18,749 nucleotides of DNA from a virus (IMGVR_UViG_2703718769_000007), one strand, 5' to 3'. Shown: positions 16,003 to 18,421, counted from the first letter of the stretch. Numbers and translations: made by a program. The notes: a model not told the origin generated them from the sequence alone.

Positions 16003-16461
16003 CTAGTTAATACACTGAGTGCGGATATATTCCTGCGCCCCTTCCAGCTGCTTCTGCATCATCATCAACCGCTCTCTGAGAGTGAAATAATCCCGTTCAA
16101 CTGTGTCTGCCAGTCGGGGGCCGGTTGCATTATCCACGCCGGAGGTGGTGGGGGCTTCACGCACGGAGCCTGGACAGGTGGCGTTGATCCGCAGGCGCTT
16201 ACGACCAGCGGCAACATCAGCACGCAGAGTTTCATTTTCAGCTCTCGCATCGGCTAATTCCCTCGAGTATTTTGCATCAAGCGCAGCAACATCACGCTGG
16301 CGCACCTGCATGTCAGTAATGGTTGCGTTTGCCAGCTCCAGCTCTCTGGCTTTTTTATCGCGCTGCGCTTTGTAGGTGATGGCATTATCGCGGTAATGAT
16401 TCAGCCCCAGACTAAGCGCACCACAGACCACAAACAGAATAACGGTAAACGCGGAAAGCAT
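16003..16461 (-). CDS. Rz: Rz i-spanin
   Basis: From ATG 16461: [65 protein letters not shown]... is near-identical in places to lambda Rz as recalled. The supplied ORF starts upstream at an unlikely start. Confidence 0.9.
16065..16250 (-). CDS. Rz1: Rz1 o-spanin lipoprotein, embedded in Rz in the +1 frame
   Basis: [22 protein letters not shown]...[32 protein letters not shown] matches lambda Rz1 (lipobox, proline run). Confidence 0.85.
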
Positions 16462-16472
16462 TCGGTTTATGC

Positions 16473-16604
16473 TCACCCCACCAGCCCTGCCGAAGTCAAC
16501 GCCATCCAGGTTATGGAAAGAAAAAGAACAACCAGCATTAGTGAAAATGAAATACCGACGATTACACAAAGGCCCTTCGCCAGCATTATGAGTTTGTCTG
16601 ACAT
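16473..16604 (-). CDS. Small hydrophobic membrane protein (43 aa), unannotated in the ORF track
   Basis: ATG 16604 preceded by [49 protein letters not shown]; stop TGA 16473-16475, 11 nt before the Rz start. Confidence 0.4.
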
Positions 16605-16606
16605 CT

Positions 16607-16696
16607 TTACCCCTTAATAGCAGTAATTAACCGGGCAACCACCCATAAAAACGGAATCAGCCAGACCAGCAAAAATTTCCAGTCCATTTTTATCAT
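16607..16696 (-). CDS. Small hydrophobic peptide (29 aa), unannotated
   Basis: ATG 16696, 2 nt after the antirepressor-like stop; [29 protein letters not shown]. Weak RBS, so likely translationally coupled if real. Confidence 0.25.
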
Positions 16697-16698
16697 CT

Positions 16699-17394
16699 TC
16701 ATGCTGCGGTAGCTCTCCATGCAGCAAGCAGACCAGCAATCCACTGAACACCTTTTGGGGTGAATTTAACCTGCGTAAAAGCATGACCATTGCCCGCCTC
16801 GCCCGTTTTCACGCTAAACCGCCCCGCATCCAGGTGATGCGAGTAAGGCGTCATTTTTCCAGCGAGGCGATACATTATTCCGTTCTCCAACAAAAACAGC
16901 CGGAAATCGGTTTCTTTGATACCGAGTAACTTAGCAACTTCCCGGAATCCCATCAGACCAGATGCTTCAACATAGTTATCAACAAATTCAGCCTTCGGCG
17001 CTGCTATTGCCAGTTGATTTTCCAGCACTGCTTTCTGTTCAGCCAGTTTTGCCGCAAATCGCAACGCCTCAGGTAAAGTCCGTGGGATCTGAATACCATG
17101 CATCGCTTTGAGCCTTGCCAGCACAGAACGACGAACGGCCTTTGACTCCCTCATGCCAACGAGCATCATCTGGTCAAAATCCAGATCATAGTATGCCGTT
17201 CTTGTCTGGTTATTGTTTAACCGGAATTTTTTCCAGGTTACCTCAAGCTCAAGTTCGTCCTCAATTTTTGCAAGGAACTTACGCGGTTCATGAGGTGGTT
17301 TCCCTGCCTCAACCCGGATGGGGTTAATAATGTTATTCAGAAAATCCAGACTACTCATGGATATTTCATGATCGACAGAAATCATCTCTTTCAT
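16699..17394 (-). CDS. Antirepressor-like protein with C-terminal KilA-C (ANT)-type domain, inserted inside the lysis cassette
   Basis: 231 aa; ATG 17394 preceded by AAAGGAA. C-terminal ...FREVAKLLGIKETDFRLFLLENGIMYRLAGKMTPYSHHLDAGRFSVKTGEAGNGHAFTQVKFTPKGVQWI... resembles phage antirepressor KilA-C domains (from memory). Confidence 0.7.
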   Translation of the reverse strand: MKEMISVDHEISMSSLDFLNNIINPIRVEAGKPPHEPRKFLAKIEDELELEVTWKKFRLNNNQTRTAYYDLDFDQMMLVGMRESKAVRRSVLARLKAMHGIQIPRTLPEALRFAAKLAEQKAVLENQLAIAAPKAEFVDNYVEASGLMGFREVAKLLGIKETDFRLFLLENGIMYRLAGKMTPYSHHLDAGRFSVKTGEAGNGHAFTQVKFTPKGVQWIAGLLAAWRATAA

Positions 17395-17530
17395 GGTTGA
17401 TTCCTTTTAGTGATGAACCCTGCGCACAGGAATAACCAGCCCAAAGAGGGTTAACCAGACCACTGCCGGTTATCCACCAGGGCTCATCCTGAAAGGTTCT
17501 TTGGTTTATTTACGCTTGTGCGAAGCGCAG

Positions 17531-17557
17531 AAATGACAAAGGCACCATTACGGTGCC
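17531..17557 (-). terminator. Terminator-like hairpin with T-rich tail downstream of the endolysin gene
   Basis: GGCACC-ATTAC-GGTGCC (17541-17557), followed on the minus strand by TTTGTCATTT. A second weaker hairpin CGCTT-GTGCG-AAGCG lies at 17513-17527. Confidence 0.4.
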
Positions 17558-17667
17558 TCTGCGTGAAATAATGATCCTGACTTTATTCACTTACATTTTG
17601 CCAGTTCGCAGGATTTCGTGTTATCCGTCCGCGTTGGTCAACGTCATTTTTCAGCAAAATATTCTGC

Positions 17668-18201
17668 TTATCTGTCGATACCCCAGCACGCCAGCGCACT
17701 CTCCTGGTCGCGACGAGATACCTGACCGTAGCAATTATTTGAGCGGATACGGCAGTCTCTGCCACCGTCCTTAATCCACCAGCGAATCGCTTCACACGCT
17801 CCTCTGCGATCGCCTGCATTAATTCGTTTATAAAACGTCGACGGGAGACACTTACCGGGGCCAATGTTATACGGGCAGAATGACGCAATACCCGCTTTCT
17901 GAGGTTCGGTCAGTGGCACTCTGATGTTTTTCGCCACCCATGCCAGCGCCTTATCCCGTTCGATAGCGTTAACCCGGTCGCATTTTTCCTTCGACAGCTT
18001 CATGCCAGGAATCACAGGCTTACCATCCACCCGGGTGGCTCCACGGCAGATGGTCCAGATACCCGCACCATCACGGTATGCCGTGGTGTGGTTACCTTCC
18101 TTTTCATCCAGAAACTGGTCGAGGATTTCAGGCGCAGAAGCACCTGCGGCAATCAGCGCCAGAACGGCAGCCGATAAACCATAGCGGAGTTTCCTGCTCA
18201 T
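17668..18201 (-). CDS. R: SAR endolysin (T4-lysozyme-like, phage 21 R-type)
   Basis: 177 aa; N-terminal signal-anchor-release-like segment MSRKLRYGLSAAVLALIAAGASAPE, then ...DEKEGNHTTAYRDGAGIWTICRG... (E/D/T catalytic pattern). ATG 18201 lies 4 nt after the holin stop. Confidence 0.9.
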   Translation of the reverse strand: MSRKLRYGLSAAVLALIAAGASAPEILDQFLDEKEGNHTTAYRDGAGIWTICRGATRVDGKPVIPGMKLSKEKCDRVNAIERDKALAWVAKNIRVPLTEPQKAGIASFCPYNIGPGKCLPSTFYKRINAGDRRGACEAIRWWIKDGGRDCRIRSNNCYGQVSRRDQESALACWGIDR

Positions 18202-18205
18202 CAGC

Positions 18206-18421
18206 TTACTCTCCCCGTGCCGCCTTACGCCGGTCCTCTCTGATTTTGAAATACAGGTTCGTCAGATATGTCAGCAGCCCAAACAGCAGACTCCCCAGCA
18301 CGCCTATTGCCGCCCACTGAGACGGGGAAACCCTGTCCAGCAACTGCAGGAACCAGTAGCCCGTTCCCACCGCTGACGTGGTGTATGACACACCTGTTGT
18401 GATTTTTTCCATCTGGTACAT
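18206..18421 (-). CDS. S: Pinholin (phage 21 S-like), dual-start motif
   Basis: 71 aa [71 protein letters not shown] closely matches phage 21 S as recalled. In-frame ATGs at 18421 and 18412. Confidence 0.9.

Follow-up and report, generated by a model that had tools for sequence, protein, structure and literature searches.

Two small membrane-protein reading frames between the endolysin and spanin genes of a Stx-phage-like Escherichia prophage

Two small frames in a lambdoid lysis cassette

The lysis genes of the prophage studied here raise a simple question: are two tiny, hydrophobic reading frames immediately ahead of the spanin gene Rz real genes and, if so, what do they contribute? Both lie in a stretch of viral DNA of 18,749 nucleotides (IMGVR_UViG_2703718769_000007), the whole of which we call the window. 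An earlier note, made from the sequence alone, described them as tightly packed minus-strand frames of 29 and 43 aa, here ORF1 and ORF2, and proposed that they could be lysis modulators (antiholin or releasin-like) or membrane-active toxins. The positions, sequences and spacings in that description are reproduced in our analysis; the functional labels are taken up further below.

Pfam matches mark the minus strand from 18421 to 16003 as the lysis cassette of an Escherichia prophage of the lambdoid, Stx-phage-like kind. It opens with a class II holin of the phage 21 S type (18206..18421, PF04971) and the lysozyme R (17668..18201, PF00959), a protein of 177 aa with a hydrophobic N-terminus of the R21 type. 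A module of about 898 nt follows (16684..17581, delimited by blastn against an ant-less relative, L002), which carries the phage antirepressor gene ant with its KilAC domain (16699..17394, PF03374). ORF1 (16607..16702) and ORF2 (16473..16604) come next, and behind them, again by Pfam, a genuine Rz i-spanin (16003..16461, PF03245) with the Rz1 o-spanin lipoprotein embedded in it (16065..16250, PF06085). Downstream of Rz, still on the minus strand, a lipoprotein-like ORF of 113 aa with a TonB_C domain (15084..15425, PF03544) occupies a position at which bor is often found in lambdoid phages; the terminase and head genes lie beyond it.

On the minus strand a consensus scan finds neither promoter-like nor terminator-like sites adjoining ORF1 or ORF2, and no Rfam family is matched anywhere in the window. 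At the start of the ant module, between R and ant and 24 nt inside the module's left edge, the sequence can be read as a terminator-like hairpin, GGCACC-GTAAT-GGTGCC followed by TTTGTCATTT (17531..17557, minus strand). This hairpin is absent from the output of the consensus terminator scan, and the leader that holds it is common to two unrelated antirepressor modules.

A 43-codon membrane-protein gene ahead of Rz

ORF2 runs from an ATG at 16604 to a TGA at 16475..16473. Its AAGGGG Shine-Dalgarno sequence (16615..16610) lies just upstream of the ORF1 stop, and between its own 3' end, GGTGGGGTGA, and the Rz ATG (16461) there are 11 nt; the ribosome-binding site and the 11-nt gap to the Rz start had both been pointed out before. 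Each small frame was also said to have one hydrophobic stretch of transmembrane (TM) length, and this holds: the best 17-residue Kyte-Doolittle mean is 2.36 in ORF1 and 2.74 in ORF2, and AlphaFold2, given the family alignment, models ORF2 as one continuous helix (residues 2-38, mean pLDDT 89). Three charged residues (D3, K4 and K10) stand before the helix and there are none after K10. By the positive-inside rule this would place the N-terminus of ORF2 inside and its C-terminus outside the membrane, with a predicted tail of no more than about 10 uncharged residues beyond it.

How confident can one be that a frame this short is a gene? We regard ORF2 as very probably a real protein gene, and it is comparison across copies, not the length of the frame, that shows it to be more than a chance opening. 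In all 167 copies examined, which represent 26 distinct nucleotide alleles, the frame is open and stops at codon 44, and every homologue keeps the character of a single hydrophobic helix. ORF2 is found behind four kinds of upstream neighbour (ORF1 with a KilAC-type ant, a 189-aa antirepressor, a 71-aa small membrane protein, or an ant-less ORF1), and its Shine-Dalgarno sequence and start codon are kept in all four. Behind the 189-aa antirepressor, which is unrelated to ant, it gains an MGWLM extension so that its start overlaps the upstream stop. With one other class of cassette, nucleotide homology (blastn) restarts exactly at the ORF2 ATG, which is the pattern to be expected if gene function filters recombination junctions.

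Codon-level comparison points the same way. Against the divergent homologue at locus L168, dN/dS is 0.20 in the ORF2 frame and 0.61 and 1.67 in the other two, at a dS of about 1.5, close to saturation of the synonymous sites. For closely related E. coli alleles, with changes counted along a minimum-spanning tree, omega is about 0.51 over the whole gene and 0.31 in its core (codons 13-28), compared with 0.76 and 1.04 for the shifted frames of the same allele set; counted in the same way, Rz has an omega of 0.46, ant of 0.22 and R of 0.11. Purifying selection on ORF2 within this set is weak. Ahead of the Rz ATG, the Rz frame remains open for about 36 codons, across ORF2, because its third codon position coincides with the T-rich second position of the hydrophobic ORF2 codons. 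A longer, TTG-initiated Rz of 188 aa (16569..16003, minus strand) was considered there and rejected, dN/dS in that frame being greater than 1.

The earlier note had named conservation of the frame and ribosome profiling as checks, and for ORF2 the second has, in effect, been published. The homologue in prophage Sp10 of E. coli Sakai was reported as the novel small gene XECs191 (Hücker et al., 2017; PMC5597208), with an RNA RPKM of 30.0, a footprint (translatome) RPKM of 12.6, an RCV of 0.43 and a coverage of 0.55 in LB. These values pass the thresholds of that study (minima of 1 RPKM, 50% coverage and an RCV of 0.25); the signal is low and comes from an uninduced culture. The authors of the study predicted a product located in the inner membrane, with a single TM helix. 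In the current Sakai RefSeq record the position of XECs191, within Sp10, is held by ECs_1966, a hypothetical protein of 147 nt.

The family to which ORF2 belongs is therefore not new: ORF2 is already catalogued, and the translation of its homologue is already in print. ORF2 matches PHROG 4906 over its full length (E = 6.6e-24; residues 1-43 align with positions 7-49 of the 49-position profile), its protein is identical to RefSeq WP_001280923.1 ("hypothetical protein"), and each of the RefSeq or GenBank loci inspected carries an annotated homologue. It differs from other members of this family, ECs_1966 included, only by allelic variation, and shares with them a place between an endolysin or antirepressor gene and Rz. 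The description of the two frames as unannotated consequently holds only locally; ORF1 is skipped by PGAP. PHROGs lists both PHROG 4906 and PHROG 6632, the family of ORF1, as of unknown function.

Of 5426 complete E. coli genomes, 1070, or about one fifth, carry ORF2, at 1484 places in all, and its relatives are encoded on 369 viral contigs. Among 70 cluster representatives, all those with a source name come from E. coli; in the most divergent clusters, the members that carry names are Escherichia. When 1.84 billion representative proteins were searched with a profile, only 28 matched, and no remote link to a characterised family emerged. The only match in a species-representative genome, L085 (NZ_JPLE01000251.1), is a 328-bp contig of a Xanthomonas pisi assembly whose allele is of the E. 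coli type; contamination is the probable explanation. By hhalign, the ORF2 and ORF1 families are unrelated.

A truncated frame fused to the antirepressor module

ORF1 poses a different problem. Its short form begins at an ATG at 16696, 2 nt after the ant stop (TGA, 16701..16699), and ends at a TAA at 16609..16607, giving the 29 aa of the earlier description. What had been overlooked is a second in-frame ATG (16702..16700) that overlaps the ant stop as ATGA and gives a long form of 31 aa (MKMIKMD...); in GenBank PV340545 the ORF1 homologue is annotated from this overlapping start. The frame itself is present as claimed, but its origin had been missed. A search with the longer ORF of an ant-less prophage recovers a family (PHROG 6632) of about 44-47 aa, in which a cytoplasmic segment, xIDFSKLIRELRLM, precedes the TM helix and a Shine-Dalgarno sequence with a GTG, ATG or TTG start is conserved. 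The family follows the pattern x(I/V)DFSKLIRELRLMI.QLP(N/D)WKFLLIW..PF.W....LI.AIKG, with a variant ending in ...LIGQIRWW, and dN/dS is 0.07-0.16 in most pairs.

ORF1 aligns with only part of this family (profile positions 20-43 of 45, E = 2.3e-4): it shares the C-terminal TM helix, WKFLL(V/I)W..PF.W....LI.AIKG, and the N-terminal IDFSKLIRELRLM segment is missing. Alignment with the ant-less relative accounts for the difference. The stretch 17581..16684, ant included, replaces 127 nt which in that relative encode the conserved N-terminal part of the family, and homology restarts at 16683, the codon before WKF. It follows from this boundary that ORF1 in the window keeps only the TM helix together with seven codons contributed by the end of the ant module, which stand in place of xIDFSKLIRELRLM and of the family's own Shine-Dalgarno sequence and start. 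ORF1 is, on this alignment, a truncated, ant-fused derivative, or paralogue, of a longer family.

Members of that family occur in E. coli, Salmonella and Providencia. Like ORF1, they lie in nearly all contexts downstream of an endolysin: in Salmonella phage SPN3UB an unannotated ORF of about 44-45 aa sits between the lysozyme gene and Rz, and in Providencia the gene follows a CHAP-like hydrolase. The one context seen without relation to lysis genes is in Salmonella phage SEN34, a myovirus, where the gene (L171 2001-2138) lies between the baseplate spike and wedge genes.

Is the truncated frame still read? The ATGA overlap would probably allow the 31 codons to be translated by termination-reinitiation, and we put the chance that ORF1 is still translated at about even. 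The competing reading, to which we give a little less than an even chance, is that the ant insertion destroyed the gene and left a non-functional remnant whose frame is open by accident. The insertion boundary does fall inside the gene, and the segment lost with it is the most conserved one in the family; none of the three ATGs in the window copy has a Shine-Dalgarno sequence at a useful distance, 11 loci have lost the third of them, the helix of one ant-linked allele contains a Glu, nonsense alleles have arisen independently in the family, and PGAP makes no call. Against decay, two divergent ant alleles (MKMIKMD and MNTKQTY) both retain the ATGA and the stop-free, in-frame junction, the 31 aa that result are the length expected from an invariant internal Met of the family, and pN/pS in the TM part is 0.14 between two ant-linked copies. 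This last value may reflect selection that predates the truncation, since the TM part at L175 differs from that of the full-length L168 protein at a single site.

The internal Met just mentioned (..RELRLM-I..; seen at L002 2486-2577, L168 2501-2635, L170 2001-2138 and L196) is preceded 9 nt upstream by the element xGG-GAG, and a short form begun there would measure 31 aa. In the L196 allele class a stop codon lies just upstream of it. Speculatively, this could be a dual-start design that gives a long and a short form, comparable to the holin/antiholin pairs of lambda (S107/S105) and phage 21 (S71/S68), which likewise supply membrane helices from the lysis cassette. For annotation, ORF2 deserves a gene call and ORF1 a flag as a truncated paralogue.

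The endolysin-spanin junction and the case for a role in lysis

Neither small frame is alone in occupying this position, in a lysis cassette that is very common among E. coli prophages. In a sample of 57 distinct intervals from the R stop to Rz, anchored on the R protein and not on the small ORFs (loci L178-L256), 53 carry at least one tiny TM ORF of PHROG 6632, 4906 or 1115/4493, and R abuts Rz in only four; since these are close relatives, the fraction should be taken as no more than indicative. Two further types of small TM ORF at the junction match PHROGs 1115/4493/3246, and up to four tiny TM ORFs stand in tandem (for example at L002 2365..2928). Directly upstream of the small TM genes there is, in nearly all contexts, an endolysin gene, which may be of any of four types: R21-like lysozyme, Peptidase_M15_4, GH108 or CHAP-like hydrolase. 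The junction also takes two kinds of antirepressor gene and DNA methyltransferase genes, and for this reason we regard it as an insertion-tolerant site. The near-ubiquity and shuffling of micro-membrane genes between endolysin and spanin is, in our view, the feature that deserves a specialist's attention.

Some details of these junctions are worth recording. DNA methyltransferase genes lie between ORF2 and Rz at L023 (1376-2143), L049 (2629-3573) and L089 (2144-3079), where the methyltransferase starts a few nt after the ORF2 stop, with the same GGTGGGGTGA or a GGAGTGA element. In two cassettes with no Rz nearby (L175 2625-2822 and L168 2762-2887), a small lipoprotein ORF comes after the ORF2 homologue; it has the lipobox ..LVPFLLVGC.., is truncated in L168 and matches PHROG 7528 (unknown function).

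Do the peptides belong to a known class of lysis protein? ORF1, ORF2 and the related small ORFs have no match in Pfam, NCBIfam or PADLOC, and a literature search on these accessions or on small ORFs between endolysin and spanin returned nothing specific. The closest functional precedents are two small single-TM accessory lysis factors. The releasin gp25 of phage Mu has 99 aa, with DUF2730, an N-terminal TMD and an anionic cytoplasmic domain of 73 aa (PMC9239132); Lcc6 of the Shewanella prophage LambdaSo has 65 aa, a cytoplasmic tail of 43 aa and a gene near xis (bioRxiv 10.1101/2024.01.23.576932). Both are cytoplasmic-membrane proteins that act beside SAR endolysins or pinholins, and the resemblance to them is one of functional analogy only: ORF1 and ORF2 are almost pure helix, have no sequence similarity to either protein and are dispensable in many relatives, and their genes lie inside the lysis operon, whereas that of Lcc6 is far from the lysis genes. 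The releasin-like label finds no support: neither frame has the DUF2730 signature (PF10805; no Pfam match at E <= 1), and the anionic cytoplasmic domain of about 70 aa is missing from both, ORF1 having 29-31 aa in all and ORF2 no residues beyond its helix.

The antiholin label, which stands for a protein that binds its holin and delays triggering, likewise finds no support as a family assignment. Holins typically combine one or more TMDs with a charged, hydrophilic C-terminal tail; ORF2 is uncharged after K10 and ORF1 ends in ...AIKG. Neither has a Pfam holin match, and BLASTP aligns nothing of ORF2 with the cassette's own holin. An antiholin of the dual-start type is excluded, ORF1 and ORF2 being genes separate from the holin. 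We also considered ORF2 as an i-spanin or u-spanin substitute at the loci where Rz is missing (L168 and L175) and rejected it: ORF2 has no periplasmic domain, at most about 10 of its residues lie outside the helix, and Cys13 stands in the context K-G-L-C without a lipobox. An i-spanin would carry a coiled-coil domain in the periplasm, and an o-spanin or u-spanin a lipobox. By the features that can be tested in the sequence, then, the two appear not to be members of the releasin, holin, spanin or type I toxin classes.

What stood of the broader proposal, that the frames are lysis modulators, is that they encode membrane-helix peptides within a lysis operon; what did not stand is a specific partner. 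Homologues of ORF2 also adjoin unrelated holins (Phage_holin_8, Phage_holin_3_7) and GH108 or Peptidase_M15_4 endolysins with no Rz nearby, and on these grounds a dedicated pinholin, SAR endolysin or Rz partner is disfavoured and any fixed phage partner for ORF2 is unlikely. Nor does ORF2 show a conserved helical face, its conservation moment being matched or exceeded by 9563 of 10000 shuffles. The small TM genes are, moreover, dispensable: K-12 Qin has no small ORFs or named small genes at the R-Rz position, they are missing from 4 of the 57 intervals, and ORF2 is far rarer than R-type lysozyme (1484 places against 7816).

Competing explanations and their consequences

Our best explanation, which taken whole we hold with roughly balanced confidence, is that the ORF2 frame is a genuine, translated gene for a single-pass inner-membrane protein, that ORF1 is the cut-down copy of another, and that both supply dispensable membrane accessories of lysis. 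ORF2 would be transcribed as part of the late lysis message, between endolysin and spanin genes and without a promoter or terminator of its own, and its 3' end (GGTGGGGTGA) would be placed to serve as a ribosome-binding site for whichever gene comes next. The insertion of the ant module replaced the N-terminal segment of ORF1 and left the 31-codon frame, and in most relatives the junction is filled by a combinatorial array of tiny TM genes of which both frames are part. The peptides would act in the cytoplasmic membrane at the time of lysis, where helix-helix contacts might tune holin triggering, endolysin release or the action of the spanins. That the function is lysis-related at all is a tentative suggestion, which we rate somewhat below an even chance. 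A broader version, in which the near-universal, shuffled junction set of enterobacterial lambdoid prophages (PHROGs 6632, 4906 and 1115/4493, in some cassettes with the lipoprotein of PHROG 7528) amounts to an unrecognised class of accessory regulators governing when, or under what conditions, pinholins trigger, endolysin is released or spanins fire, with the long and short starts of the ORF1 family acting in a holin/antiholin-like manner, we consider unlikely.

The main rival reading is that the small genes are moron-type cargo, directed at the host or at competitors (superinfection exclusion, block of a transporter or receptor, membrane physiology) and present at the junction only because the site tolerates insertions. 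We think it rather unlikely, though much of what has been described above is compatible with it: the antirepressors and methyltransferases at the junction clearly have nothing to do with lysis, the small genes shuffle independently of each other, the ORF1 family has its member among the SEN34 baseplate genes, ORF2 homologues accompany unrelated lysis genes and are then followed by the small lipoprotein ORF, and transcription and translation were seen in an uninduced lysogen culture. The low uninduced signal would, however, fit spontaneous induction equally well, and cargo of this kind sits uneasily with the start-to-stop packing within the late operon, the lack of a promoter-like site ahead of the genes, the endolysin gene of one of four types that directly precedes them in nearly all contexts, and the absence of any PADLOC defence match.

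A reading that dispenses with the peptides altogether takes the frames as translation-coupling leaders, in which only the act of translating them matters, by delivering ribosomes to Rz or opening its mRNA. The ORF2 stop does lie within 11 nt of the next start in most contexts, and the last codons of ORF2, which resemble a Shine-Dalgarno sequence, persist regardless of whether the following gene is Rz, a methyltransferase or another small ORF. Purifying selection on the amino acids (the dN/dS of 0.2 against L168, with its near-saturated synonymous sites) and the conservation of a hydrophobic single helix in every homologue speak against it, as does an RNA with no more structure across ORF1-ORF2 than shuffled sequence (z = 0.10), and we consider it improbable. 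Least probable is the membrane-active toxin of the earlier note, a type I toxin such as Hok, Ldr, Ibs or TisB. Small hydrophobic single-helix peptides are what such systems encode, but ORF1 and ORF2 lie in a tight, same-strand operon without a long 5' leader, and would be co-expressed with proteins that kill the cell anyway. Crude consensus scans find no promoter-like site flanking either gene on either strand, the only match falling inside ant, and hence neither a promoter of their own nor a nearby antisense promoter, and the window has no Rfam antitoxin or other RNA family.

Lysis timing is a major trait of phage fitness, and toxin release depends on it as well in Stx prophages. Two recent examples, Mu releasin and LambdaSo Lcc6, show that lysis can hinge on a small single-TM protein that is not part of the holin-endolysin-spanin triad. 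If the junction peptides modulate lysis, they would add an extra layer to the lambdoid lysis model; if they have no measurable effect, they would provide an example of small TM genes that persist as shuffled cargo.
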